A DNA stretch of 64,000 bases from the IMG/VR virus record IMGVR_UViG_3300011115_000879, positions 64,001 to 128,000 of that record; one strand, given 5' to 3'. This stretch comes from a virus. Under the pieces are notes generated by a model. The model searched no databases. It had not been told where the DNA came from and worked only from the letters and a program-made list of their open reading frames with translations. Shown one piece after another: positions 3,906 through 41,441 of this stretch (within the stretch, counting starts at the first letter, position 1; each line of letters opens with the position of its first letter). Position numbers and translations under genes: made by a program.

Positions 3906-4343
3906 ATGAATAATTGGTTATATGAATACATCCCACTACAGGATGACTTTACAACAGACAATTACGGTTTTATTTATAAAATCACTAATATAGAGACAAA
4001 TAAATTCTACATTGGTAGAAAATCATTTGTCCATAACAAGAAGAAAAAACTCACTAAAAAAGAATTAGCCGAACAACCTATAGCACGTGGTCGTAAACCA
4101 ACTACTAAAGTAGAACAAGTCGACAGCGGCTGGCGTGATTATTGGGGTTCATCTAAAGAATTATTAGCTGATGTTAAATTATTAGGTAAAGATAAATTCG
4201 AACGTGAAATATTAAAGTTCTGCCCTACTAAAAAGCAACTCACATTCTACGAAATACAATACCAAATCCAACACTCAGTACTATTTACTGAAAGCTACAA
4301 CGACAACATAGGAGGTAAATACTTCCGTAAAGACTTTGTATAG
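3906..4343 (+). CDS. GIY-YIG family endonuclease (short, T4 EndoII/Seg-like)
   Basis: GFIYKIT...FYIGRK, YWGSS, conserved Glu (FYEIQ) and YN motif. Confidence 0.8.
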   Translation: MNNWLYEYIPLQDDFTTDNYGFIYKITNIETNKFYIGRKSFVHNKKKKLTKKELAEQPIARGRKPTTKVEQVDSGWRDYWGSSKELLADVKLLGKDKFEREILKFCPTKKQLTFYEIQYQIQHSVLFTESYNDNIGGKYFRKDFV

Positions 4344-6093: not shown

Positions 6094-6103
6094 TAATATT
6101 TAT

Positions 6104-6136
6104 AGGTGGCTTGACTAAGTTGAGCCACCTTTTTTA
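6104..6136 (+). terminator. Intrinsic terminator
   Basis: AGGTGGCTTGAC-TAA-GTTGAGCCACCT hairpin followed by a T-run. Confidence 0.85.
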
Positions 6137-6157
6137 TTATTATATTTATGTACAATT

Positions 6158-7129
6158 ATGATTAAACTAATAAGTATCGTTAAACAAATCCTATTAGAGG
6201 GTGGTAACGTATTTGGCACTACAGATTCAATTCAAAAAGCAAACATTGAACCTACAGTAGAAGTATTTAGAAGTCAATTATCTAAAATATTTCCTGCAAA
6301 AGCAGCATCCTTCAAATCATTTGAAAAATTAAGTTCAGCAGGTAAAAAAGATGTATCGGGTGATATTGATTTATCATACGATGTTAAAAATTTATTTCCT
6401 GGAGGTAAACCTGATTTTAAAGGTTGGGGTGTAGATGAAACAAAATACAACGAATTAGTAGCAAAATATACTAAAAGTTCTAGAACAGCATCACCTGAAA
6501 AAATTCAATTACGTGCAATGATTGTACTAATTGGAGAAAAAATTAATGATGCTTTAGAAGATGTTGAAGTAGATACCAAAGCCTCTGGTTCTGGATCTAT
6601 ATTTTGTGCTGTACCACAATACGGACCTGATGGTAAAAAATTAGGTAAAGCAGTTCAAACTGATATTAATATAGGTAATCCAGAATGGTTACGCTTTAGC
6701 TACTATTCTAACACATACTCAGGTAATGTTAAGGGATTACACCGTACACAACTTATGTTAGCTTTATTCTCAAATAAAGGTAGAACATTTGGTCATTCAA
6801 CTGGTGTTGTAGATAAAGAGACAGGAACACAAGAAGCAAAATCACCACAAGAAGCTATTAAATTATTAAATAAATTATATAATTTTAATATAACTCAAGA
6901 TATTTTAGATGATTATTTTAAATTAGAAGATTATATGAAGAAAAATCTATCTAAAGAAGAATATGGTTCTATTATGGATAGATATTTAAAAATATTAGAC
7001 TCAACACGAGCAGATATACCTGATAATCTACAACAATATTGGATTGACAATCAGGAAAGATTAGGATTGAAAGGTAAATTCTTACCGGATACATCTAACT
7101 TAATACCTCACCAAACCGAAAAAGCATAA
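6158..7129 (+). CDS. Pol-beta-like nucleotidyltransferase-fold protein with MIKL leader (putative internal head protein)
   Basis: LSSAGKKDVSGDIDL plus third Asp in VQTD; leader MIKLISIVKQILLE. Confidence 0.6.
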   Translation: MIKLISIVKQILLEGGNVFGTTDSIQKANIEPTVEVFRSQLSKIFPAKAASFKSFEKLSSAGKKDVSGDIDLSYDVKNLFPGGKPDFKGWGVDETKYNELVAKYTKSSRTASPEKIQLRAMIVLIGEKINDALEDVEVDTKASGSGSIFCAVPQYGPDGKKLGKAVQTDINIGNPEWLRFSYYSNTYSGNVKGLHRTQLMLALFSNKGRTFGHSTGVVDKETGTQEAKSPQEAIKLLNKLYNFNITQDILDDYFKLEDYMKKNLSKEEYGSIMDRYLKILDSTRADIPDNLQQYWIDNQERLGLKGKFLPDTSNLIPHQTEKA

Positions 7130-10100
7130 TGTCCGGATCAATAGGAGCAAATAGAATACCAAGATCAGCAGTTGAAGCTACACTTAAAGCCTATACTGAT
7201 AAAGTATTAAGGAAATTTCCTGGCTTTAAATCAGCTAAAATATCTGGCTCATATAATACTAGTGTAAAACCAGATCATGGTGATTTGGATTTAGTTATTC
7301 ATATTGAAGGAGACGAAACTGATAAGAAAATATTAAAGCAAAAATTTGCTGCTTTTCTTAACTCATTATCTGAAATTCCTCCATTTAAATCAGGACGCAA
7401 TGTTGGTAAAAAATCAGCAGGTACAGGTGATATAGTAATTACACAATTCCCTATTGAAGGATATCCAGACTTAACTGTACAGATTGACAATATGATTGTT
7501 ATGTCTGAACAAGAAAGTGACTATAGAAAAAGCTTTTTAGATTTACCGGCTGAAAAACAAGGTTTATTGGTTGGTTTAGCTAAAGCTATATTATTAGAAG
7601 AAAATCCACAAGATATATTTTCGCGTTTAGGTATCACAAATATACCTAAATTAGAGGATAATCAAGAATTTGAATTTAATTTATCAAATAAAGGATTAAC
7701 ATTACGTTTAGTTACATTGAGTGATAATTTTAAAGAAACAGGTAGAAACGAAATATGGACATCATTTAATTGGAGTGATGTAGAAAAACTATTTAAGAAC
7801 TATAATTTAAATGGAAGCTGGGAAGATTTATTAGATGATATAAAAAATAAATTACAAAATCCACGTTCTAAAAACCGTGTAAAAGGAGTATTTAATTCAC
7901 TAGTTGTAATAAATGCTGGTGAAGCTGGGACCCCAAAAGGTGATAATAAATTAAAAGCAAAAGAAAAAGTGAGTGCAACATTATCTGAAAATAATTTAGG
8001 ACGCTATTTAGTGTCTATGTTATTAGAACAAGAAGAAGAAACACAACCAACAATAGCAATATTTCCTGGTGCTTTTAAACCACCTCATAAAGGACACTTT
8101 GATGTAGTAGAACAACTATTAAAAGTATCTGATCAAGTAGTGGTACTAGTATCTCCTAAAACAAGAGATGGCATTACAGCAGATGAAAGTATGGCTGTAT
8201 GGAATTTATATAAAGCTAAATTAGATGGTTCTGTTGAAGTAAGAGTATCAGCAATTACCCCTATTAAAGAAACATATGACGTTGTAGCAGATAACCCAGA
8301 TACTGAATTTAGAGTAGCATTTGGTAAAGGTGAAATAGATCGTTACAAAACGATTGAAAAATATCCAAATGTAAAAATATTTGATGCTGGTGAAGTAGAA
8401 GGAGTAAGTGCAACAGGATTAAGAGCAGCTATCGTTAGCAAAAATGAAGAAAAAATTAAAGAATATCTACCAGAAGGAATTACTATAGAAGAATTCATGT
8501 CTGCTTTAAATAAACCAGTAGAAACATCAACAGCACCACCAGCTGAACCAGCACCCGCTGAACCAGCTCCTGCTGCACCAGAACAACCATTACAAGAATC
8601 ACCACCGCTTGAATTTGAACAAGACGATTATCAAGATTATGTATTACAAAATAGAAATAAAATAGAGAAAGCAGCGTATTTCTTTAATTTACCTATTAGT
8701 GATATGGAATATGCGTTTAATGCTGGTAAAGAAGTAGTATTATCTGATGATATGTGGTCTAAATTAGATAATAGCAAATCATATAAAATGAAAACATTAG
8801 ATGATGCTATTCAACACGCTCTAAAATTAGGTATTAATCCTAAACCATATATTGATTTTATTAAAGGCGGTAAGGAAATGCCTTTACCACTTGTGTTGTG
8901 TTATGCTCAAGACAAATATTATTTAGTTGGTGGAGAGATAGTATTATCATTATATAGAGCATTAGGTTCAATCCCTACAGTAATACAAGCTACATTAAAT
9001 TTAAAAATTAATTCACCATCGTATCCTGTAATGGTAAAGGAAGGTTTAATTAAAGAATATTCTGAAAGTCTAATTAAAAGATTAATACAAAAATATAAAA
9101 TAGAACAACCAGATTTATCTGATGAAGATATAAGAGCAGAAATATTAGAATTTGATAAAATAAAAGATAAATTAGATCCTACTAAACGAGATATAACTAA
9201 ATATGATTGGAGTACATTACAATCAACAATACAAGATAATAAATCAACTCGCATTAAAGCTGGTAAAGTTGATAAGAATAAGGTAGAAGGTGATGTTAAT
9301 TTAGTTTATAATAAGAATGGCATTAGAATATATAAAGCTGACTCTAAAAAAGCCTGTATTAAGTATGGTAATGGATATAGTTTCTGTATATCAGCTCGTG
9401 GAAGTGGTAATGCATTCGATACTTATAGATTTGGAGATGAAGATGAAGAACAAGATCCAGGATTACCGTATTTTGTATTTGATGATAATAAATCTTCTGC
9501 TAAAGATGAAAAAGATAAATTCATTGATCAGGAACATTTATTAGTTATATTCGCCCTAGAATATGGAGGATATGCAGTAACAAAAGCTAATAATGAGGGA
9601 GAAGATTGGTTTGAAACTTTTGATAAATTAGTATCTAAATATCCATATCTTAATGGATTAGAAAATACAATTAAATATGAAAATCCTGATAAAAAAATTA
9701 GTCTAGGTAGAGAATTTACTAAATATGTTGATAATAAAGCAACAGAATTGATAACTATCTGGCTGAATAAAAATAAGGATTTTTATCGAAAAGAATCGGC
9801 CTTTGCACCTAACTTTAATAACTTACCAAATAAAAGTAAACAATTTATTCAAGATATATTGGATGGAAAAAGAGTTATGTATAGCATAACAAATAAATCT
9901 CCATCTGGTAATGGTACTTCTATAATAACTACTAGTCCTGAAGAAGCACAAAAAGAATTAGAAAAATATATAAAAAAATCAGACGATAATTTTAATAACA
10001 ATATTTCATCTTTATCTATAGAAAAACAAAAAGACGTACTTGATTATTATCATAAATATCCATTTCATTTAGTACAAATCCCTATGAATCAATCTACAAT

Positions 10101-10578
10101 TGATTATTTAGAAGGATTAGTTAGACTTGCTGATGTAAATACTAACAATGTAACTCAATATATGACATCTTGGCCTATTAAACATATTGGTCTTTTAGAA
10201 AACCAAGAAACTTCAAATAAAAAAGTAGATTCAAGTATAATAAAAGAATTTATTAAATTTGCTATTAGAAAACTACAAATATCTAAAATACCAGAAGGAT
10301 TAACATTATCATACAACAATGATGAAGCTAAATCTCGTCACTCATTTGGTACATTTGACCCAAATACTGGTAAAATATGGCTATACGTTAAAAATAGAAA
10401 CATGGCTGATATATTACGCACACTAGCACATGAATTAGTTCATCGTAAACAAGACGAAGATGGACGTATCGATTATAGTAGCGGCGAAACAGGATCAGAA
10501 ATTGAAAACGAAGCAAATGCTCAAGCAGGTATACTATTAAGAGACTTTGGTAAACAAAACGAAAAAATATATCAATAA
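7129..10578 (+). CDS. Multidomain protein: nucleotidyltransferase + HxGH cytidylyltransferase-like + degenerate ParB/Srx-like + Cys-motif domain + HExxH metallopeptidase
   Basis: ISGSY...GDLDL...VQID; PGAFKPPHKGH...VSATGLR; MPLPLVL...YLVGG; CIKYGNGYSFCIS; TLAHELVH...ENEANA. Confidence 0.7.
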   Translation: MSGSIGANRIPRSAVEATLKAYTDKVLRKFPGFKSAKISGSYNTSVKPDHGDLDLVIHIEGDETDKKILKQKFAAFLNSLSEIPPFKSGRNVGKKSAGTGDIVITQFPIEGYPDLTVQIDNMIVMSEQESDYRKSFLDLPAEKQGLLVGLAKAILLEENPQDIFSRLGITNIPKLEDNQEFEFNLSNKGLTLRLVTLSDNFKETGRNEIWTSFNWSDVEKLFKNYNLNGSWEDLLDDIKNKLQNPRSKNRVKGVFNSLVVINAGEAGTPKGDNKLKAKEKVSATLSENNLGRYLVSMLLEQEEETQPTIAIFPGAFKPPHKGHFDVVEQLLKVSDQVVVLVSPKTRDGITADESMAVWNLYKAKLDGSVEVRVSAITPIKETYDVVADNPDTEFRVAFGKGEIDRYKTIEKYPNVKIFDAGEVEGVSATGLRAAIVSKNEEKIKEYLPEGITIEEFMSALNKPVETSTAPPAEPAPAEPAPAAPEQPLQESPPLEFEQDDYQDYVLQNRNKIEKAAYFFNLPISDMEYAFNAGKEVVLSDDMWSKLDNSKSYKMKTLDDAIQHALKLGINPKPYIDFIKGGKEMPLPLVLCYAQDKYYLVGGEIVLSLYRALGSIPTVIQATLNLKINSPSYPVMVKEGLIKEYSESLIKRLIQKYKIEQPDLSDEDIRAEILEFDKIKDKLDPTKRDITKYDWSTLQSTIQDNKSTRIKAGKVDKNKVEGDVNLVYNKNGIRIYKADSKKACIKYGNGYSFCISARGSGNAFDTYRFGDEDEEQDPGLPYFVFDDNKSSAKDEKDKFIDQEHLLVIFALEYGGYAVTKANNEGEDWFETFDKLVSKYPYLNGLENTIKYENPDKKISLGREFTKYVDNKATELITIWLNKNKDFYRKESAFAPNFNNLPNKSKQFIQDILDGKRVMYSITNKSPSGNGTSIITTSPEEAQKELEKYIKKSDDNFNNNISSLSIEKQKDVLDYYHKYPFHLVQIPMNQSTIDYLEGLVRLADVNTNNVTQYMTSWPIKHIGLLENQETSNKKVDSSIIKEFIKFAIRKLQISKIPEGLTLSYNNDEAKSRHSFGTFDPNTGKIWLYVKNRNMADILRTLAHELVHRKQDEDGRIDYSSGETGSEIENEANAQAGILLRDFGKQNEKIYQ

Positions 10579-11218: not shown

Positions 11219-11386
11219 ATGCATAATAATCCTGAATTTAATACTATTGGACTTGTTTCTATAAGTTTAACCACTCTAAATAGTCTATTTCAAGTATTTA
11301 ATCCTATCCTTACAGGTTTATTTTATATAGCTTCGATTTCGTGGCTATGTGTACAAATATACTACAAATTAAAAGGTAAAAGATGA
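11219..11386 (+). CDS. Small membrane protein, holin candidate (55 aa, absent from ORF track)
   Basis: MHNNPEFNTIGLVSISLTTLNSLFQVFNPILTGLFYIASISWLCVQIYYKLKGKR; follows ATATTTAT at 11176; ATGA overlap with the next gene. Confidence 0.55.
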   Translation: MHNNPEFNTIGLVSISLTTLNSLFQVFNPILTGLFYIASISWLCVQIYYKLKGKR

Positions 11387-11613
11387 TTAAACTATCAGAA
11401 TTATTAGAACCAGAACCACTACAATTTCCAGATAGTTTTAAACCAGCTAAAAAGGTACCTGAAGGTGGTGCAATGTGCGCTAACTGCGCTAAGTGGAATA
11501 AAGAAACACAATTGTGTGAAGGACAATATTACATTGATTGGAATGGTAACGGTAAAATACCAACTGAACCAACTAAATATGTTTGTATTTGGTGGGTACC
11601 GCAAAATAAATAA
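11383..11613 (+). CDS. Small 4-Cys protein (HiPIP-like spacing) with MIKL leader
   Basis: MIKLSELLE leader; CANC...C...CIWW. Confidence 0.5.
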   Translation: MIKLSELLEPEPLQFPDSFKPAKKVPEGGAMCANCAKWNKETQLCEGQYYIDWNGNGKIPTEPTKYVCIWWVPQNK

Positions 11614-11615
11614 CA

Positions 11616-12218
11616 ATGATTAAACTATCAGAACTACTAAGCGAAAAAGCACCATGCTGGAAAGGTTATAAACAAATTGGTATGAAGGAAAAGAATGGTA
11701 AACAAGTACCAAACTGCGTTCCAATTGATGAAGCCTTTTTTATAGGTGAAGATCAAACTATAGAGTGTGAAAAATGTGGATGGAGATGGAAATTATCTGA
11801 TGGTGGAAAAGATCCATATCTTTGCCATAAATGTAATTTCGATAATAGCTACGTCTATCAAGACGAAGCAATAGATGAATACGACGTTGAAAATAAACAA
11901 GACGTATTAGAATTCCTCCAATTTATAAAAGAACACAACAAACTATTATCTGAAGCAGAATGTGATTGTGTTTATGAAGCTGAATATCACGGCCATAAAG
12001 TTACATTAGGTAAACCAATGCAAGGTGATATTAAGAAATTCAAAGTATACGTTAAAGATCCTAAATCAGGAAGAATAGTTAAAGTAAATTTTGGAGCTCA
12101 TGGAATGAATATTAAAAAGAATAATCCTAAACGTCGCAAAGCATATAGAGCAAGACACCATTGTGACAATCCCGGACCTCGTACTAAAGCAAATTATTGG
12201 AGTTGCCGTAAATGGTAA
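11616..12218 (+). CDS. Putative internal head protein made of Cys-containing mini-domains
   Basis: MIKLSELLSE leader; CWKGY...VPNCVP; CEKC...CHKC ribbon; basic C-terminal domain ending RARHHC...YWSCRKW. Confidence 0.55.
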   Translation: MIKLSELLSEKAPCWKGYKQIGMKEKNGKQVPNCVPIDEAFFIGEDQTIECEKCGWRWKLSDGGKDPYLCHKCNFDNSYVYQDEAIDEYDVENKQDVLEFLQFIKEHNKLLSEAECDCVYEAEYHGHKVTLGKPMQGDIKKFKVYVKDPKSGRIVKVNFGAHGMNIKKNNPKRRKAYRARHHCDNPGPRTKANYWSCRKW

Positions 12219-12233
12219 AATAAAAATATATAA

Positions 12234-14897
12234 ATGAGAGCAATAGATAAATTCATATTACACGTAGCACATAATCTTTTCCCTTTAAATGAATATTCAG
12301 CAGGAGAAGTATCCCGCTTAATGATTCAATTTAGAGAAGAAGCTGATGATTTAAATATCCAAATTACAGACGATCAACTTAAAGCATATATCAATCGATT
12401 TGATACTTTAAAAAATTCTCCTAAAGTACAGGAGAAAGATTTACGTAAATATACTTTATCAAAACTAATTAAATTAGTAACATCATCCGCCGATGCTGAA
12501 ACAGAAGGTGATGAGGAAGATCAAACACCAGATGTAGTATATCAAGATGGTGGTATTACAATATGGAATGGCTCTAAAGAAGGTAATTGTATTGCTTATG
12601 GTAGAGGAGAAAAATGGTGTATCACTAGAGGATCATTTGGTAACTACCGCTATAGCGCAGATAAAGGATATCCAGTATTTTATTTAGCTAAAAATACTAA
12701 TATATCAGATAGTGATAAATTAAGCTTTGTTGCTATTCAAGTTAGAAATGTAACAGATGACGATAAAAAATACGTCTATACCGATAGAAGTAACTCCCCA
12801 TATGAATCATCAGCAATGAATTTTAGTGCATTATTATCTAAAATCCCTTGGTTGAACGATATTCCAAATATTAGAGGAATATTACGTTATATCCCTTTAA
12901 ATAATAATGAAAAAGTAAATCAAAAATATAAAAACGAATCGGTTAGTATTAGAGAATGGATAAAAATGCCATTTAATACTAAAAAACAATATTTAGTTGT
13001 TAGGGGTGCACGTACTTTATTTAATGATATAGAAAATACAGAATTTGTTGGAAAATATTTACCACAATATCCACAAATAGCTGAATTTATTGTTATTACT
13101 CCTGGTATCATTGATAATGTTTATTTATTAGCAAATTTAGATAAATTTAGCAATCAAGATAGAAGATCAATAACAGCTAACATACAACAACCAATTGATT
13201 TAAGATACCTTTCAACAGAAAACTTTCCATTTGATGTTAAAAAATTATTAACATTATTAAAAAAATGGAAAATTAGAAGTGATGAAAGATTATATGTTAC
13301 TAAAAATGGTGAAGCCATTGTTAAATTAAAATTTGGAGATACAGTTAATATAGGAGTATACACAGCGGAAGATGATTATCCAAATGTTAAATTAAATCAA
13401 CGCACATCAAAATACTTACTTGACTACCCAGAACTAGATAAGATACCATTCAATGTAATGATAAAATTAGCTACTGATGGTGTTATAGATAAAAGCTTAT
13501 TAGATACAATTATAGAAAAAGCTAAAACAGATGAAGATTCTGCTATTGTAGTTAAAGATATTAATGGTAAAGAAATTATAGTCGATTCAAATTCATTTGC
13601 ATCATATAAAATTGAAGATGGTAAAATATCTAAAATACCATTTGATGATGAAGATGTACAAGCTGTATTTGCTGCTGAAAAAGATAATTTATCATTCCAA
13701 CAAAGTGCAGTTGATACTATTAGAATAGCAGCTACTGATGGACAAGATCTACCACCAAGATTAGATAAAGAAGCATTTTTATCCATTGTTAAAGCCACAC
13801 CATACGATAAAAGAACATACACAGATGGGCGATATCAATATGTTGTTTTAGTACCAGAAGGACAAGGTGAGAGAGATATGTTTACAAAATCTACAAACCT
13901 ATACGATAGTATGTTAACTACTGGAGCTGATTTTGGACGTGCTGGTGATTGGAGAGCATTTGATCATAAAGGTGCAATGCAGGAAAGAGATTATAGAGCT
14001 TACTTCAGCTGGATGAGAAATGAAAATAAAGTATATGAAAGTGAACGAGTAATAAGTAATTGGAGGACTACATGGGGTGGTGTAGGTGGTAAAAAAGCAT
14101 GGTTTGCAGCACAACCACCATTCTCACCAACAGACCAATACGCACCCGCAGTATCAGCAGACGGTACTTGTTATCTTGTTAATAAACAAAATTCAAGAGA
14201 AAGTCTTAAATTATCCGACTCAGCTAAATTAGTTAAAGCAAATATACCAGCCTCAATGGCTCGCCAATTAATAGGCGCTACACCAGATCAAGCTACTCCA
14301 GTAGCTGCAGCAGCTACAACACCAGTAGCAAACGCAGCAGCACCAGCAACCGGTAGAAGAGGTAGACCAGTAGGTGTAGCTAATGCTCCACGTGCTGCCG
14401 CTCCTGCAGCAGCAGCAGGAGAAGGATTTATAAATGTAGCTAACGTAATGGATGAAACTGGGTTAGTAGCTGCATTTAACGGATTACCACGTGCTGATAG
14501 AAATAGATTAAACGTAACAGATGGTGTACGTATTACTCCAAATGGAGATAGAGGTGCTGCTCGTCGCAATAATCAATTAGGTGAATTAGTTGGCAGTGTA
14601 GGTAGAGTTATTGGTATTGGAGCTAGTAAAATATACTTAATTCGTTTAAGAGCAAACCAACAAATAATAGCATCTATTAATATACAACCAGGTAATAGAA
14701 ACTACGTACTATTACCAAATGGCACAGCATTAACATTAAATTCACCAGCTGAATTAATGCAGGTATTACGCCAACGTAACTTAGTAGCTGAAGCTCGCAA
14801 TTACATTGTGCGTGAATATCTACACCACAACCCACAACATTTAGATGAGGTACGAGGTTTAATACAACAACACGTTAATGAAACCAAAAGAAAGTAA
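12234..14897 (+). CDS. Large hypothetical protein, putative internal head/ejected protein
   Basis: N-terminal domain (after PLNE) aligns with an internal domain of 7129..10578; Ala/Pro linker with an RRGRP AT-hook-like motif. Confidence 0.5.
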   Translation: MRAIDKFILHVAHNLFPLNEYSAGEVSRLMIQFREEADDLNIQITDDQLKAYINRFDTLKNSPKVQEKDLRKYTLSKLIKLVTSSADAETEGDEEDQTPDVVYQDGGITIWNGSKEGNCIAYGRGEKWCITRGSFGNYRYSADKGYPVFYLAKNTNISDSDKLSFVAIQVRNVTDDDKKYVYTDRSNSPYESSAMNFSALLSKIPWLNDIPNIRGILRYIPLNNNEKVNQKYKNESVSIREWIKMPFNTKKQYLVVRGARTLFNDIENTEFVGKYLPQYPQIAEFIVITPGIIDNVYLLANLDKFSNQDRRSITANIQQPIDLRYLSTENFPFDVKKLLTLLKKWKIRSDERLYVTKNGEAIVKLKFGDTVNIGVYTAEDDYPNVKLNQRTSKYLLDYPELDKIPFNVMIKLATDGVIDKSLLDTIIEKAKTDEDSAIVVKDINGKEIIVDSNSFASYKIEDGKISKIPFDDEDVQAVFAAEKDNLSFQQSAVDTIRIAATDGQDLPPRLDKEAFLSIVKATPYDKRTYTDGRYQYVVLVPEGQGERDMFTKSTNLYDSMLTTGADFGRAGDWRAFDHKGAMQERDYRAYFSWMRNENKVYESERVISNWRTTWGGVGGKKAWFAAQPPFSPTDQYAPAVSADGTCYLVNKQNSRESLKLSDSAKLVKANIPASMARQLIGATPDQATPVAAAATTPVANAAAPATGRRGRPVGVANAPRAAAPAAAAGEGFINVANVMDETGLVAAFNGLPRADRNRLNVTDGVRITPNGDRGAARRNNQLGELVGSVGRVIGIGASKIYLIRLRANQQIIASINIQPGNRNYVLLPNGTALTLNSPAELMQVLRQRNLVAEARNYIVREYLHHNPQHLDEVRGLIQQHVNETKRK

Positions 14898-15418: not shown

Positions 15419-15775
15419 ATGATTAAGTTAGCTGAATTATTAGATGAAAAACATCTTACTCCTGCTGAAGTAGAAAAAAAGGAAGATATTCTTAAAGCCA
15501 TGAAAAAATCTGGCACTAAGTTAACTCCTAAAGAATATGCTATAGCAACAGCAAAAGCTGAAAAAATAGCTGAAGGAGAAGATCATGAAGCGTCAATGGC
15601 TAAAGGTGAATTACGCGATATGCTTACACACGGAGCAAAATTATACCAAATGATTGAACCAGGTGAAAACTTACCAGGTTGGGTATCATCTTACATCACA
15701 TTGGCTTCAGATTATATTCACAGTGTAACAGAATATATGATTGAAAAATCCGTTGAAGGAGAAACTTATGAATAA
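15419..15775 (+). CDS. Putative internal head protein with MIKL leader
   Basis: MIKLAELLDE; second domain DHEASMA...LPGWVSSYIT after KIAE. Confidence 0.5.
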   Translation: MIKLAELLDEKHLTPAEVEKKEDILKAMKKSGTKLTPKEYAIATAKAEKIAEGEDHEASMAKGELRDMLTHGAKLYQMIEPGENLPGWVSSYITLASDYIHSVTEYMIEKSVEGETYE

Positions 15776-29994: not shown

Positions 29995-31032
29995 ATGAAA
30001 AGTGTAAAACAACAATACATCGATTTACAAGAAGGTAAAATGTCTCAAACGCAATTTATGCGTAATATACGTTTAACCTTACCTCAGTATGTTACTAATG
30101 TAACATCATTTGATGATTCAGTTAGAATCCTTAAAAATAAAGGTATATTATCTGAAGCTGATACAAAATCATCTGAAGGTGAAGGTAAATGGAAAACAGT
30201 TACTGGTAAAGATTTATATAGTCATTTTAAAGAAATTGACAATTTAAATGGTCAAGAAGTATTAGTTGGTGTTGATTATGAAATGGAAAAAAATCCTGAG
30301 CTAACTAAACTAGAAGCTCAAAAGATTGTAATTAAAAACCTAAAGAAAAATCAATTTTACTACACAGCACAAGATGTATCTGGTGTAGAAGGATATGAGA
30401 TGGAATATATGGGTTCTAAAGAAGATGTAAAGGCTCGTCAAATGCAATATCTTGAAAAAAACATGAGCAATGTTGTTGACAAGAAAATGGGTATGAAACC
30501 AGTTAAAGGCTTCGAAAACGCAAAAGCATCATCAAATAAAGCATCTAAAGAAACTAATAAAAGTGGAGAAATAGATATAATGTCATTAGTAGCTAAAACC
30601 GTTCGTGGTTTAGTTAAAATGGACGCTACCGGTGAAAAAGCTAAGAAAATTGTAATGAAGGAAGGTGAAGAAATGGATACAATGGCATTAGTACAACGTT
30701 TCATTAATAGCAATCCTACATTAAGACAACACACCACAGATATTGAACTTGAAAATAGCGGTAAAGGTGTTATTTTGAAATACGGATTTTATGATACATT
30801 ACCTGATGAATTATATTCTAAATTAGAATTACAATTTGATGTTAATGGAATGGATGATAATACAGATGAGGAAGGTGAAAAAGTATATTATACATTAACA
30901 CCAAAAAAATCACCATATAACTCACAATACTCAGGTGTCGGTTTACAATCACCATTAGAAGAAGAAATACGCAAACAAGTAAAAGAAATGTTTGATGGTC
31001 GTGACAATTTAACTGATATTGAAAATTTTTAA
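29995..31032 (+). CDS. Putative prohead core/internal protein
   Basis: LQE, LSE, MKE and LEE sites; GVDYEME motif; directly upstream of the protease. Confidence 0.45.
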   Translation: MKSVKQQYIDLQEGKMSQTQFMRNIRLTLPQYVTNVTSFDDSVRILKNKGILSEADTKSSEGEGKWKTVTGKDLYSHFKEIDNLNGQEVLVGVDYEMEKNPELTKLEAQKIVIKNLKKNQFYYTAQDVSGVEGYEMEYMGSKEDVKARQMQYLEKNMSNVVDKKMGMKPVKGFENAKASSNKASKETNKSGEIDIMSLVAKTVRGLVKMDATGEKAKKIVMKEGEEMDTMALVQRFINSNPTLRQHTTDIELENSGKGVILKYGFYDTLPDELYSKLELQFDVNGMDDNTDEEGEKVYYTLTPKKSPYNSQYSGVGLQSPLEEEIRKQVKEMFDGRDNLTDIENF

Positions 31033-31033
31033 T

Positions 31034-31648
31034 ATGAAGCAACTATTAATCGATCATACACCGTTTAACGTAGCAAAACTAACATTATCTGAAGCGAAAG
31101 CAATAGATAATGGTAGAATGCGTATTAAAGGTAAATTACAAGAAGCCGAACAAAAGAATGGCAATGGTCGTGTTTATCCTATGGAAGTATTGCGTCGCGA
31201 AGTAGAAAAATACATTGACGGCCCAATAAAATCTAATACAGCAATGGGTGAGTTAGATCACCCCGAAGCATCAATCGTTAACTTAAACAACGTATCACAC
31301 AATATTAAACGCATATGGTGGGAAGGTAATGACTTGATGGGTGAATTAGAATTACTAAATACACCATCAGGAAAAATTGCTCAAGAAATTATATCTGCAG
31401 GAATACCATTAGGTATATCTTCACGTGGTATGGGTTCAGTAAAGCAAATTGGTGAATCCGTAGAAGTACAAGACGATTTCGAATTAGTATGTTGGGATTT
31501 GGTATCATTACCATCAACACCAGATGCATATATGAGATTATCTGAAGGTAAACAAACATCAACAACACCATCAAAAGACTATAGTAAAATTAATTCATTA
31601 ATAACTGAAATAATTTGCACTCACACAGGTGTATGTGCATTATGTTAA
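31034..31648 (+). CDS. gp21: Prohead protease (T4 gp21-like)
   Basis: NGNGRVYP, GELDHP (His), GISSRGMGS (Ser), WDLVSLPS (Asp). Confidence 0.93.
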   Translation: MKQLLIDHTPFNVAKLTLSEAKAIDNGRMRIKGKLQEAEQKNGNGRVYPMEVLRREVEKYIDGPIKSNTAMGELDHPEASIVNLNNVSHNIKRIWWEGNDLMGELELLNTPSGKIAQEIISAGIPLGISSRGMGSVKQIGESVEVQDDFELVCWDLVSLPSTPDAYMRLSEGKQTSTTPSKDYSKINSLITEIICTHTGVCALC

Positions 31649-33901: not shown

Positions 33902-35527
33902 ATGAACGTACAACAATTATTAGAATCATCAAACCAATACAAAACGGTTTCTGATGATGCAAAAAAACTTAGTTCCAAGTGGACTAGATCGGGCCTCTTA
34001 GAAGGTATTAAAGGCGAAAACGATCGCAATACTATGGCCATGTTGCTTGAAAATCAAGCAAAACAATTAGTAACTGAAGCCTCTTCAACTGGTACTGCCT
34101 CTCCAGGTAGTGGTGGTTATAATGGTGAATCTTGGAATGGCGTTGCCTTACCATTAGTTCGTCGTGTATTCGGTGAAATCGCTGCTAAAGAATTCGTTAG
34201 TGTACAACCAATGAACTTACCTTCAGGTCTTGTATTTTATCTTGACTTTAAGTACGGTACTGGTGTTAAACCATTTGCTCAAAATAGTTCTTTGTATGGC
34301 GCTAACGCAACTACAAACGTAACTGATATCGCTTCTGCTTCATTATATGGTGCTGGTAGATTTGGTTACTCACTTAACCCATATACAGCTTCTGTAGCTT
34401 CTATTTCTTCATCTCTTACTTGGACTGATTTTAATTTTGATGCTGATTATTCAGCTTCTGCCGCTGCTGGTACTTACAGAAAAATTCAAGTTCCTTTACC
34501 GGCTGGATACGATACAAATGGTGTTCGTGCTTTTACAGTTACTTCAGGTTCAACTGATTTACAAGTTTTAAGTGCATTTACAACTGTAGCTAGTAATACT
34601 GGTTCTTTCATTGTAACTGGTTCTTTACTTGCTGGTGTTGTTGGTACTGGTGTAGGTAACTTAATTTTATCTTATACATTTGCTCCTCAAGATTCTGGTA
34701 GTGGTCAATTCCGTGGTGATTTTGAAGACGGCGTTACTAAGAATCCAGGTACTGCTGCTCCATCTACAATTGCAATCCCAGAAATTAACGTACAGTTAAA
34801 ATCTGAACCAATCGTTGCTAAAACTCGTAAGTTGAAAGCACAATGGACACCAGAATTTGCTCAAGATTTGAACGCTTACCATAGTGTTGATGCTGAAGCT
34901 GAATTAACTGGTATCTTATCTCAATACATTTCAATGGAAATTGATTTGGAATTGATGGATATGTTGATTCAAAATGCATTCACTGTTGATTACTGGAGCG
35001 CTCAAAACAATACTACTGTTACTGCTGCTGGTGGTGTAGTTGCAAATGCTGCTGCTCAATCCTTCTATAACACACAAGGTGGATGGTTCCAAACTTTAGG
35101 TACTAAATTACAAAAAGTTAGTAACAAAATTCATCAATTGACATTACGCGGTGGCGCTAATTTCATGGTAGTTTCTCCAACAGTATCTACTATTTTGGAA
35201 TCAATTCCAGGATTTGCTGCTGATGGTGATGGTGATAAAATGGAATACAACTTTGGTATTCAAAAGATTGGTAGCTTGAACAGTCGTTACAAGGTTTACA
35301 AAAACCCATACATGACTGAAAATGTTATCTTGTTAGGATATAAAGGTGCTCAGTTCTTGGAATGTGGTGCTGTATTTGCTCCATACGTTCCATTGATCAT
35401 GACTCCATTATTGTATGATCCAACTACATTTACTCCACGTAAAGGTCTTATGACTCGTTACGCGAAGAAAATGATCCGTCCTGATTACTACGGTAAGATC
35501 TATGTTAGTGGTTTGAACACTATCTAA
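33902..35527 (+). CDS. gp23: Major capsid protein, copy 1 (T4 gp23-like)
   Basis: LLENQ, LVRR, VQPMNLPSGLVFYL, AKTRKLKAQWTPEFAQDL, APYVPL, FTPRKGLMTRY; ATG at 33902 aligns with copy 2. Confidence 0.95.
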   Translation: MNVQQLLESSNQYKTVSDDAKKLSSKWTRSGLLEGIKGENDRNTMAMLLENQAKQLVTEASSTGTASPGSGGYNGESWNGVALPLVRRVFGEIAAKEFVSVQPMNLPSGLVFYLDFKYGTGVKPFAQNSSLYGANATTNVTDIASASLYGAGRFGYSLNPYTASVASISSSLTWTDFNFDADYSASAAAGTYRKIQVPLPAGYDTNGVRAFTVTSGSTDLQVLSAFTTVASNTGSFIVTGSLLAGVVGTGVGNLILSYTFAPQDSGSGQFRGDFEDGVTKNPGTAAPSTIAIPEINVQLKSEPIVAKTRKLKAQWTPEFAQDLNAYHSVDAEAELTGILSQYISMEIDLELMDMLIQNAFTVDYWSAQNNTTVTAAGGVVANAAAQSFYNTQGGWFQTLGTKLQKVSNKIHQLTLRGGANFMVVSPTVSTILESIPGFAADGDGDKMEYNFGIQKIGSLNSRYKVYKNPYMTENVILLGYKGAQFLECGAVFAPYVPLIMTPLLYDPTTFTPRKGLMTRYAKKMIRPDYYGKIYVSGLNTI

Positions 35528-35540
35528 TATAATAACATAA

Positions 35541-35576
35541 AAAACGGCTGGGTGTAACAACCTGGCCGTTTTATTT
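35541..35576 (+). terminator. Hairpin with interrupted U-tract between the capsid genes
   Basis: AAAACGGCTGGGT-GTAACA-ACCTGGCCGTTTT followed by ATTT. Confidence 0.65.
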
Positions 35577-35600
35577 AATAACACATTCAATTCATTTAAA

Positions 35601-37304
35601 ATGAATATTCAATCTCTATTAGAATCATCAAACCAATATAAAACGGTTTCTGATGATGCAAAAAAACTTAGCACCAAATGGGCTAAGTCTGGCCTTTTAG
35701 AAGGCATTAAAAGTGAGAATGATCGTAATACGTTATCTATGTTGCTTGAAAACCAAGCAAAACAACTTGTAACTGAAGCTTCATCTACAGGTACAGCAGC
35801 CGCGGGTGCTGGATCTTATAGTGGTGAAAGTTGGAACGGAGTTGCATTGCCTCTCGTACGTAGAGTATTTGGTGAAATTGCAGCAAAAGAATTCGTTTCA
35901 GTTCAACCAATGAACTTACCTTCAGGTCTTGTATTTTATCTTGATTTTAAATATGGCACAAATGATGTTCACTTCAATAACGGTGATTCATTATATGGTG
36001 CCAATGCAACTAATAACGTAACTAACATCGCAGGTGAATCACTTTACGGTGCTGGTCAATTCGGCTACTCAATCAATAACTTCTCAGCTTCTGTTACTTC
36101 TGTAACCGGTGCTTTAGCTACTTGGGTAGATTTTAACTTTAACGATGACTTCTCAGCTTCAGCTGCTAGTAGCCAGTATAAAAAGATTTTAGTTCCATTA
36201 CCAACAACAGCCGATACAAATGCTGTTCGTTCATTTTTCATTAGTGGTAGTATTATATCTGGATCAGTAACAAGTTTTGGTGGGTACGGTGTAACTAATA
36301 CATCTACTAATTTACTACAAGATTTTACTACTGTAACAAATAATACAGCTTCATTCTTATTAACAGCATCTTTATTTACTAATAGTGTTGCTAGTGGTTC
36401 TAATCCTACACAAACAACACTTTTATACTTTACTGTAGCTCCAACAACTACAACTCGTGGTGATTTTGAAGATACTACTTCAGGTGGTGGTTCTGGTACA
36501 GCTGGTGGTAATGGTGGTTACCCATCTTTCCAATCCAATAGTACAATCGTTATCCCAGAAATTAACGTACAGTTAAAATCTGAACCAATTGTTGCTAAGA
36601 CAAGAAAATTAAAAGCACAATGGACACCGGAATTTGCTCAAGATTTAAATGCATATCATAGTGTTGATGCTGAATCAGAATTGACAGGAATTTTATCTCA
36701 ATATATCTCTATGGAGATTGATTTAGAATTAATGGACATGCTAATTCAAAATGCATTTACAGTAGATTATTGGTCAGCACAAAATAACACAACTGTTACT
36801 GCTGCTGGTGGTGTAGTTGCAAATGCTGCTGCTCAATCGTTTTATAACACTCAAGGAGGATGGTTCCAAACACTTGGTACTAAACTTCAGAAAGTATCTA
36901 ATAAAATTCATCAATTAACACTGAGAGGCGGTGCTAATTTCATGGTAGTTTCTCCAACAGTATCTACTGTTTTGGAATCAATTCCTGGATTTGCAGCTGA
37001 TGGTACAGGTGAAAAACTAGAATATAACTTTGGTATCCAAAAAATAGGTTCATTAAATAGTCGCTACAAGGTTTACAAAAATCCTTACATGACTGAGAAT
37101 GTAATTTTATTAGGATACAAAGGTGCACAATTCCTAGAGTGTGGTGCTGTATTTGCTCCATACGTTCCATTAATTATGACTCCACTTCTTTACGATCCAA
37201 GTACATTCACACCTAGAAAAGGTTTGATGACTAGATACGCTAAAAAGATGATTCGTCCTGATTACTACGGTAAAATCTACGTTAGTGGTTTAAATACTAT
37301 TTAA
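35601..37304 (+). CDS. gp23: Major capsid protein, copy 2 (T4 gp23-like)
   Basis: Same motifs as copy 1; C-terminal half almost identical, central insertion divergent and longer. Confidence 0.93.
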   Translation: MNIQSLLESSNQYKTVSDDAKKLSTKWAKSGLLEGIKSENDRNTLSMLLENQAKQLVTEASSTGTAAAGAGSYSGESWNGVALPLVRRVFGEIAAKEFVSVQPMNLPSGLVFYLDFKYGTNDVHFNNGDSLYGANATNNVTNIAGESLYGAGQFGYSINNFSASVTSVTGALATWVDFNFNDDFSASAASSQYKKILVPLPTTADTNAVRSFFISGSIISGSVTSFGGYGVTNTSTNLLQDFTTVTNNTASFLLTASLFTNSVASGSNPTQTTLLYFTVAPTTTTRGDFEDTTSGGGSGTAGGNGGYPSFQSNSTIVIPEINVQLKSEPIVAKTRKLKAQWTPEFAQDLNAYHSVDAESELTGILSQYISMEIDLELMDMLIQNAFTVDYWSAQNNTTVTAAGGVVANAAAQSFYNTQGGWFQTLGTKLQKVSNKIHQLTLRGGANFMVVSPTVSTVLESIPGFAADGTGEKLEYNFGIQKIGSLNSRYKVYKNPYMTENVILLGYKGAQFLECGAVFAPYVPLIMTPLLYDPSTFTPRKGLMTRYAKKMIRPDYYGKIYVSGLNTI

Positions 37305-40133: not shown

Positions 40134-40754
40134 ATGGCTTATTCAATACGAAAAACATATTGGGCACCAGGAGGTGAAGGATTAGGAGGTGGTGGAGGAA
40201 TAGATGGCCCTTCATCAACAGCAACACCAGATGATGGAACACCCGCAACACCTCCTATAGACCAAGGTGGAGGAACAGAAACACCATCTGGAGGAGGAGC
40301 AGGACCAGCAGATACAGCACTTCAAACAGCAGTAGATTATAGTAATATGAGTGTAATGTATTACAAGATCAATCTTGAAAGTACAAAAACTAATATGTAT
40401 GGTGAGGCGCTAGAAAAATGGTATTACCCACCACTACAAACAAAATGTTTAATTACAAGGGATGCTATAACAAATAGCGACGATGAATTTGGTGTAACTG
40501 TAGCTAATACTATAACAGTATCTATCCCTAGGATTACATTAGATGGATATCAATTCCTACCAGAAGTAGGAGATATATTAATGGATAGAGAGAAAATGTA
40601 TGAAGTAAATAGTATAGACCAAAACTTTATAACATTACCTGGAGGATCAGGACAAGCTCAATCAAATGGTACAGCAGGTGTTACTGTTATATTTGTATTA
40701 AGCTGTTACTTAACTAGACTTACAAAACTTAATTTAATAGAATATTACCAATGA
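40134..40754 (+). CDS. Head closure/neck protein (T4 gp14-like) with Gly/Pro N-terminal segment
   Basis: TNMYGEA, PEVGDIL...YEVNS; follows the gp13-like gene. Confidence 0.6.
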   Translation: MAYSIRKTYWAPGGEGLGGGGGIDGPSSTATPDDGTPATPPIDQGGGTETPSGGGAGPADTALQTAVDYSNMSVMYYKINLESTKTNMYGEALEKWYYPPLQTKCLITRDAITNSDDEFGVTVANTITVSIPRITLDGYQFLPEVGDILMDREKMYEVNSIDQNFITLPGGSGQAQSNGTAGVTVIFVLSCYLTRLTKLNLIEYYQ

Positions 40755-41089
40755 TAAAATTAACAGATTTACTATTAGAATCAACCAATCTGTTTAGAAT
40801 GGATGCCCTAATTAAAACAACTACTGGTATAAACAAAGTAGAAATATATAATCAAATCAGAGCAATTACTGGTGTGGTAGTAATGACTATAGAACAAAGC
40901 GAATATTTGGATAGCCAAGCAACAGATAAATTTGAATATTCTTTATTACATATTAAATATTTAGTAACATCCGACCCTAAAACAGATATAGAGAAAATTA
41001 AAAAAGACGCTCTAATCACAAATAGAATACCAGGGCTATTACAATTTATACCAAGATTAAATACAGCTAAACAACTAGGAAAATATTAA
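40751..41089 (+). CDS. Small protein with MIKL leader
   Basis: MIKLTDLLLE. Confidence 0.55.
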   Translation: MIKLTDLLLESTNLFRMDALIKTTTGINKVEIYNQIRAITGVVVMTIEQSEYLDSQATDKFEYSLLHIKYLVTSDPKTDIEKIKKDALITNRIPGLLQFIPRLNTAKQLGKY

Positions 41090-41093
41090 TATA

Positions 41094-41441
41094 ATGATAA
41101 AACTAACAGATCTAATACAAGAATTAGACGTACCACAAAACATATATAAACCAGGAGTAAAACCAGAATCTGATGATGAATTCATGAAAAAAGGATTCAA
41201 AATGAGTCAAACTACTGTTGATCCTGAAACCGGAGCTTCTACATCAAATGTAGAATATTTACCATCATTTGAACAAATTCGTAAAGATATCATAATGACA
41301 CGTAGAGAATTTCAACCATTTAAATTTTCATCTAATCCTGATATAGCTAAATTGGCTAAAGATATTAATATGCACTTAACTAAAGCTTCTAACATGATTT
41401 TCGCTTTAGATAAAATGGTTGAATTACAAAGAAAAGGATAA
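41094..41441 (+). CDS. Small protein with MIKL leader
   Basis: MIKLTDLIQE. Confidence 0.55.
   Translation: MIKLTDLIQELDVPQNIYKPGVKPESDDEFMKKGFKMSQTTVDPETGASTSNVEYLPSFEQIRKDIIMTRREFQPFKFSSNPDIAKLAKDINMHLTKASNMIFALDKMVELQRKG

Follow-up and report, generated by a model that had tools for sequence, protein, structure and literature searches.

The prohead protease of phage T4, gp21, cuts after Glu in the motif L/I-X-E with few other determinants (PMC9026906). Capsid targeting sequence (CTS) peptides of 10 to 20 residues load the internal proteins (IPs), Alt, and large foreign fusions into the T4 prohead, after which they are clipped off; many cuts are made in gp22, and Alt is processed at each of its ends (PMC9026906, PMC5694885). 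With Asp at P1, T4 cargo is still targeted, but cutting is blocked (PMC9026906). T4 gp24 has a 10-residue propeptide (PMC9958956). In the giant phages phiKZ, 201phi2-1, and SPN3US, gp21-like proteases cleave many internal head proteins, among them enzyme subunits, behind the Glu of a three-residue motif, and some of these proteins have several cleavage sites. For the polyvalent proteins of phages, Iyer, Burroughs, Anand, de Souza, and Aravind (2017) drew an explicit analogy to RNA virus polyproteins and predicted delivery together with the DNA (PMC5512222). CTS/gp21 processing, the polyvalent proteins likened to polyproteins, and multisite cleavage in phiKZ-like heads are already known, and the literature searched contains no description of a string of enzymes bounded by prohead protease motifs, with combinatorial modules and address peptides. 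A candidate for such a string is P0001, a 1,149-amino-acid (aa) open reading frame (ORF) at positions 7129 to 10578 on the plus strand of a 64,000-nucleotide window, which covers bases 64001 to 128000 of a 159.6-kb IMG/VR phage record (IMGVR_UViG_3300011115_000879). The phage is T4-like, with Flavobacterium-type hosts.

P0001 consists of five modules of differing fold, A to E, as judged from Pfam, AlphaFold, Foldseek, and Atlas, and a motif of the type cut by the S77 family, to which gp21 belongs, is found at every joint; P0001 is therefore probably cut into separate proteins in the head. We consider, with a probability of about 0.55, that P0001 is a head-loaded modular polyprotein cut at its joints by the prohead protease. 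Like the T4 CTS/gp21 cargo (IPI to IPIII, Alt, gp24, and gp22), the system includes an S77 protease gene, an L/I-x-Glu motif, short leaders of 10 to 20 residues on unrelated proteins, and a capsid protein N terminus that resembles the gp24 propeptide. However, each T4 cargo protein is a single protein from which a terminal peptide is removed, whereas P0001 would release five enzyme-like modules, lacks a leader at its own N terminus, and has thousands of relatives in which modules and leaders have been recombined in a combinatorial manner. Like the polyvalent proteins, P0001 joins several unrelated enzymatic domains in one phage chain encoded near virion genes, and a zincin, a ParB/Srx-type domain, and Pol-beta nucleotidyltransferases are typical components of that class (PMC5512222). 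In contrast to the reading proposed for P0001, release by an embedded peptidase was predicted for polyvalent proteins, and LxE joints and CTS-like leaders were not described (PMC5512222); in addition, module E scores below the MPTase-PolyVal threshold, and neither module C nor module E aligns with DdrB of phage P1. In the phiKZ group, long propeptides are cut off single proteins and no string of enzymes is separated, and the P3 preference is for S/A (S/A-x-E) rather than for L/I as in the P0001 phage.

A first-pass annotation, made from the sequence of the window, had proposed a polyprotein with protease-type sites at its domain boundaries, and the ORF and all of the motifs that it named were found in place. 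By residue, these are TLSE (284 to 287), MLLE (297 to 300), PPHKGH (318 to 323), PLQE (487 to 490), LVGGEIVL (599 to 606), VKE (636 to 638), IKE (641 to 643), GLLE (1021 to 1024), and HELVH (1101 to 1105). The AlphaFold model of P0001, built with 59 homologues, has a mean predicted local distance difference test score (pLDDT) of 72.7 and a predicted template modeling score (pTM) of 0.34. It contains five folded blocks separated by segments with pLDDT values of <50 (residues 288 to 306, 464 to 499, 625 to 643, and 1024 to 1031). Given the pTM of 0.34 for the whole model, the domains have no fixed arrangement. The placement of LxE sites in predicted disordered linkers between modules, which the same annotation had put forward for checking, agrees with this model, and the sites are selectively conserved. 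Homologues of P0001 are numerous, with 264 word-indexed matches, more than 547 viral loci, and 7,750 representatives matching at an E value of ≤1e-3 in a search with the whole-length P0001 profile of 1,127 positions.

Although the number of [LI]xE motifs in P0001 is ordinary (15, compared with 14.2 ± 3.3 expected), the placement and conservation of [LIVM]xE at the joints are far beyond chance. Seven [LIVM]xE sites are conserved in at least 90% of the aligned homologues, and six of them (E287, E300, E490, E638, E643, and E1024/1027) fall in the intermodule linkers, which make up 7.5% of the P0001 residues; the seventh, E158, lies in a helix of module A. The joint sites are located inside the linkers with pLDDT values of <50 or 1 to 2 residues off their edges (E287 and E1024). 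As a control, the same count was made for [LIVM]-x-Z, with Z being each of the 20 residues, and of the 63 additional conserved sites, the linkers held no more than two, both L positions (625 and 299, the latter within the leader peptide). The joints were also surveyed in 326 nonidentical homologues, pooled from 80 viral loci and from the profile search, which covered 1.84 billion representatives, with a joint scored as positive when [LIVM]xE occurred within ±3 residues. The site was present in 180 of 212 homologues at joint 287, 237 of 248 at joint 300, 155 of 160 at joint 490, and 98 of 116 at joint 643, and in 94 of 119 and 150 of 189 at joint 1024/1027. The joints thus keep the site in 79% to 97% of homologues, compared with a background of 10.5%, and the in-fold [LIVM]xE controls of P0001 are mostly kept in 7% to 37%, except for two in-helix sites, E157/158 and E1040, which are conserved too. 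The joint Glu itself is 95% to 100% conserved, while adjacent linker residues vary freely. The Pro/Ala/Glu linker drifts in length and sequence but keeps P-[LIV]-x-E across subfamilies with differing next residues, and the amphipathic peptide of 13 to 18 residues at the A/B joint diverges strongly, with [LI]xE retained on both flanks down to 34% identity.

The same joints recur as protein ends among relatives. The architectures seen included ABCDE, ABCE, ABDE, ABDDE (one of them a 1,358-aa protein, L015), AB-E, A-E, BCDE, BCE, B-E, C-E, D-E, and D alone; E-D-D, B..NTase1-A, and A-E count as permuted orders, NTase1 being the paralog of module A encoded directly upstream of P0001. Hardly any architecture lacks module E, with which each of the other modules is most often combined. 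On both sides of the D insert, a repeated ..xE-GL junction is found. When encoded on their own, B, C, D, C-E, and D-E have leaders whose terminal LxE falls precisely at the P0001 joints; those of stand-alone C and D end in [LIV]xE at the position of E490 (followed by SPP) or E643 (followed by YS), and in C-E proteins the LxE of the leader is likewise followed by SPP. This outcome bears out the suggestion of the first-pass annotation that the domains be sought in relatives as separate ORFs with leaders. The leaders are of four interchangeable kinds: NLG..LLE, ..WW.E.L.LxE, MIKL..LLxE, and MKIL.... The B-first relatives (BCDE) start at residue 288/289, with Met at 288 directly after the TLSE site, and their N terminus, MNLGQYLANILLE, is the NLG..LLE peptide that forms the internal spacer of P0001. 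The NLG..LLE leader is also present at the start of several C-E proteins and of a D-E protein (L047), so it is a portable element that does not belong to module B; in one relative (L040), B starts without any leader. In eight representatives (P0152, P0160, P0168, P0205, P0210, P0228, P0229, and P0243), NTase1 is fused to module A via ..LxE|SGSAGG, where the two ORFs meet in the window. Because of the B-first starts and the NTase1-A fusions, ORF ends in some phages correspond to LxE joints in others, in both directions. Two of the fusion proteins carry N termini of their own: P0243 (920 aa, B..NTase1-A) starts with MNIQSL.., like a capsid protein N terminus in the window, and P0205 (842 aa) has a short leader directly on NTase1-A-B. 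Judging from such sequences, address tags may also include mimics of the capsid propeptide.

A gene for a T4 gp21-type prohead protease (Peptidase_S77) is present at positions 31019 to 31648 on the plus strand, with a PF03420 match of 108 bits (E value of 3.5e-32) at 31046 to 31540, and an S77 protease was found in each of five related complete genomes with genes for members of the P0001 family. Two major capsid protein paralogs with phrog_138 matches follow at 33902 to 37304 on the plus strand; their N termini, MNVQQLLE and MNIQSLLE, have the form MN(V/I)Q.LLE and resemble the 10-residue T4 gp24 propeptide. P0001 lies in a one-strand block in which, according to PHROGs and Pfam, primase and exonuclease genes are located upstream of the operon and the terminase (24452), portal (26101), protease, and capsid genes downstream.

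The partner gene NTase1 (6158 to 7129, plus strand) encodes a 323-aa Pol-beta-type nucleotidyltransferase whose leader, MIKLISIVKQILLE, ends in ILLE and is followed by GGNVF, and its stop codon overlaps the P0001 start codon (TAATG). A Pol-beta nucleotidyltransferase of about 320 aa is encoded directly upstream of nearly all A-first genes, usually with the TAATG overlap. NTase1 and module A are paralogous and form a conserved overlapping gene pair in about 40 loci, and they may work as a heterodimer. The closest cultured homologue, at about 40% identity over A-B and E, is gp088/gp089 of Flavobacterium phage vB_FspM_immuto (NC_055915), the only cultured relative, in which the gene order of primase, exonuclease, NTase1, and large protein is shared with the P0001 locus. 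Immuto gp088, annotated as a nicotinamide mononucleotide (NMN) adenylyltransferase, has 907 aa and other middle modules, and gp089 (11091 to 11999 of L001), annotated as a hypothetical protein, is an NTase1 without a leader that starts with MGGNVF, the predicted mature N terminus of the NTase1 in the window. An upstream start that would give immuto NTase1 a leader was considered and rejected, given an in-frame stop 9 nucleotides (nt) upstream. The leader of NTase1 is thus a detachable add-on. An A-run (GAAAAAG) is located at window positions 7115 to 7131, just ahead of TAATG, where a -1 slip would fuse both ORFs, and close relatives also have A-runs before the polyprotein start. A -1 frameshift from NTase1 into P0001 was discarded as a general mechanism since distant relatives have a spacer of 2 to 5 nt with stops in the target frame.

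The operon formed by NTase1 and P0001 is preceded by an intergenic control region (6096 to 6149, plus strand), which consists of ATATTTATA at 6096 to 6104, a terminator-like hairpin at 6104 to 6130, and a second ATATTTAT copy at 6142 to 6149. The hairpin divides the replication genes from the operon, and ATATTTAT, which directly precedes the operon, is common to the terminase, head, and tail genes. There are 19 copies of ATATTTATA, compared with 7.8 ± 2.6 expected, nearly all of them on the plus strand in intergenic gaps and most of them ahead of terminase, head, and tail genes. Plus-strand copies are located at window positions 1282, 6096, 14897, 24461, 27999, 31648, 37368, 38080, 44574, 48038, 52515, 56564, 57613, and 60166. 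By analogy to T4 TATAAATA, ATATTTATA is a candidate late promoter.

The five modules, all on the plus strand, differ in how closely they resemble known families. Module A (residues 1 to 287; positions 7129 to 7989) is a Pol-X-like nucleotidyltransferase that ends in TLSE. Foldseek matched it to DNA polymerases lambda and beta over about 230 columns (E value of about 2e-4), and GS40-41, D52, D54, and D120 are conserved among homologues. PF14792 (DNA_pol_B_palm) matches residues 9 to 81 at 16.6 bits, below its cutoff of 25, and neither the 8-kDa domain nor the fingers domain of family X polymerases was identified in module A. The internal leader-like spacer that follows (residues 288 to 300; positions 7990 to 8028), NNLGRYLVSMLLE, has a pLDDT of <50 and LxE on both flanks. 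Module B (residues 301 to 463; positions 8029 to 8517) is a nucleotidyltransferase of the HxGH (HIGH) type that resembles NMN adenylyltransferase (NMNAT) and phosphopantetheine adenylyltransferase (PPAT). PF01467 (CTP_transf_like) matches from residues 311 to 345 onward at 23.9 bits, against a cutoff of 21; PDB sequence matches are to PPAT, and Foldseek matches are to NMNAT/PPAT. H320, G322, H323, and R432 are invariant, and the PPHKGH and SATGLR motifs are conserved. PPAT and NMNAT score equally in the PDB sequence search and Foldseek. The NadR helix-turn-helix and kinase domains are absent, and the idea that module B is half of an NAD salvage pair was rejected, as no Nampt or NAPRTase was found in the genome.

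Module B is connected to module C by the Pro/Ala/Glu linker (residues 464 to 490; positions 8518 to 8598), which has pLDDT values of 27 to 46 and ends in PLQE. Module C (residues 491 to 643; positions 8599 to 9057) is ParB/Srx-like, with a tail that carries VKE and IKE. Its nearest named Atlas clusters are ParB_N and ParB-sulfiredoxin (0.95 to 0.96), and a weak hidden Markov model match was obtained to the ParB structure 4umk (E value of 0.73). The conserved Arg of the superfamily is replaced in P0001 (GGEIVL) and kept in some relatives (GNTRL and GSRIL). Kinship with P1 DdrB was tried and dropped for both module C (hhalign probability of 0.7%) and module E (1.8%). Module D (residues 644 to 1024; positions 9058 to 10200) is a 380-residue domain that ends in GLLE and reaches a pLDDT of 82 when modeled alone by AlphaFold. 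It carries the conserved motif C..YG.G...CI; in the first half of the module (9058 to 9690), Y, G.G, and C residues of this motif are invariant and are followed by YR. This pattern points to a site for catalysis or metal binding, within a fold that has no PDB match. Foldseek against the PDB returned nothing for module D at an E value of ≤1e-3, VIA-align against 48,161 chains gave helical noise alone (Z of ≤6.3), and the matches in BFVD are solely to uncharacterized phage proteins. A lead to PcfJ from Atlas is weak (0.90, 33% of one cluster), and Pfam returned nothing for module D. Module E (residues 1025 to 1149; positions 10201 to 10578, up to the stop codon) is a small zincin in which HExxH is followed further downstream by ExEA; H1101, E1102, H1105, E1126, and E1128 are invariant. 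Several Pfam zincin families match it below threshold (P0001 residues 1070 to 1112), and phrog_87, a metalloprotease, matches with an E value of 5e-4. PF18818 (MPTase-PolyVal) did not match P0001 and matched one homologue at 14.9 bits (E value of 0.029), against a cutoff of 27.5. Overall, the PHROGs results are consistent with the Pfam domain calls on P0001.

The loading, cutting, and ejection of P0001 and the roles of its pieces can be pictured as follows. The NTase1-polyprotein operon would be transcribed late, together with the structural genes, and P0001 would enter the prohead either via its internal leader-like peptide (residues 289 to 300) or by riding on the leader-bearing paralog NTase1. 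The S77 protease would then cut after Glu287, Glu300, Glu490, Glu638 and/or Glu643, and Glu1024, yielding A, B, C, D, and E of roughly 32, 21, 17, 44, and 14.5 kDa and a 13-residue spacer. The pieces would then exit the head together with the DNA and act at an early stage of infection. That the prohead protease cuts a packaged precursor had already been proposed in the first-pass annotation; the joint sites, the leader-bearing relatives, and the gp21-type protease gene speak for this part of the proposal, and the missing N-terminal leader speaks against it.

Several observations weigh against a head-loaded, protease-cut P0001. The only leader-like peptide of P0001 is internal, the N-terminal leader being on the upstream NTase1, and the first residues of P0001 (MSGS.G.NRI) belong to the conserved nucleotidyltransferase fold. 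In immuto, NTase1 begins directly at GGNVF, with the in-frame stop upstream, and the A/B joint is one LAE site with no spacer, so these enzymes can exist without leaders. Modules A and B look like cytoplasmic enzymes of the ordinary kind, the P0001 gene adjoins primase and exonuclease genes, and the zincin found in almost every architecture could be the cutter instead. No virion proteome of any relative was found in the literature searched. Several of these points would be expected if P0001 were an uncleaved multidomain cytoplasmic enzyme of nucleotide/NAD metabolism or DNA repair, with the LxE motifs as fusion relics or linker features, which we consider rather unlikely. Such an enzyme would fit the leaderless immuto homologue and NTase1, the replication-type neighbors, the missing N-terminal leader of P0001, the intact catalytic motifs of A and B, which are typical of cytoplasmic enzymes, and the public annotation of the immuto homologue as NMN adenylyltransferase, which implies a single cytoplasmic enzyme. 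However, relics would decay, whereas the joint Glu is nearly invariant among freely varying linker residues, and the permuted orders and free-standing modules speak against an integrated enzyme. The terminator-like hairpin also sets the operon apart from the replication genes, and the motif ahead of the operon is of the structural gene type.

The possibility that P0001 is a self-processing polyvalent protein, in which the module E zincin cuts the joints either before packaging or after injection, is judged improbable. The invariant HExxH and ExEA of module E and its presence beside every other module agree with it, as does the status of MPTase as a hub domain of polyvalent proteins, for which autoproteolytic release was predicted and the polyprotein analogy drawn (PMC5512222). 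Yet leader-LxE joints are also found on proteins without a zincin, namely stand-alone D, a family of 887-aa proteins, proteins with MIKL-type leaders, and the capsid protein at its N terminus, and the joint motif is the documented specificity of gp21. Moreover, module E scores below threshold for every curated polyvalent MPTase model and has no hhalign link to P1 DdrB. It is very improbable that the joints act at the DNA level, as recombination signals by which modules are shuffled, or have arisen by chance, with no role in the protein. The modules have clearly been shuffled at the joints, and the repeated junction on the flanks of the D insert would suit such signals, but the peptide pattern alone is conserved: with L, I, V, or M at P3 and any residue at P2, the joints share no conserved nucleotide word. 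Chance would place a site at 10.5% of joints, far below the frequencies observed.

On a wider and more tentative view, which we rate somewhat below an even chance, T4-like phages of Bacteroidota may carry a plug-and-play cargo system, in which protease-bounded modules and interchangeable address peptides are shuffled between single genes and polyproteins across thousands of relatives and the head protease frees the enzymes that act early; in that case, virion cargo could be read off the sequence by itself. It is similarly tentative that the enzyme kit of such a system comprises Pol-X-like and NMNAT/PPAT-like transferases, a ParB-like protein, a domain with a Cys motif, and a zincin. If P0001 is indeed a head-loaded polyprotein, a tailed phage would employ its head maturation protease in the way that RNA viruses employ theirs, to obtain several enzymes from one precursor, and the "load and clip" principle of T4 would be widened from single proteins to polyproteins. 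In that case, a leader or linker together with [L/I]xE would predict virion-delivered proteins from sequence in thousands of uncultured phages, and module D and similar domains would become likely candidates for effectors of early infection. The arrangement would also offer a natural blueprint for packing several proteins into T4-type capsids.

Several other ORFs of this genome bear on the same subjects. A 145-aa ORF at positions 3906 to 4343 matches phrog_447 ("NAD synthetase") and also homing endonuclease PHROGs, and the NAD label, which is used in the immuto record as well, looks doubtful. The 887-aa protein encoded at 12234 to 14897 on the plus strand has its own leader ending in ..PLNE, and directly behind it lies a sequence that duplicates the first half of module D (E value of 3e-15). 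The homology is between the N terminus of the 887-aa ORF and the first 200 aa of module D, and relatives with the same layout were found. The leader has 20 residues (MRAIDKFILHV..PLNE), and about 670 residues without a family match follow the D-half copy. In many relatives, the 887-aa protein is conserved 2 to 4 kb downstream of the polyprotein. In addition, eight ORFs in the genome start with the N-terminal pattern MIKL(S/T/A/I)(E/D)L(L/I).E; MIKL-leader ORFs are located at window positions 11383 to 11613, 11616 to 12218, 15419 to 15775, 40751 to 41089, and 41094 to 41441 and at genome positions 144738 to 145773. They include two adjacent small Cys-rich proteins and two neighbor pairs among the tail genes, and several scaffold-tail-type tags also occur in the genome.

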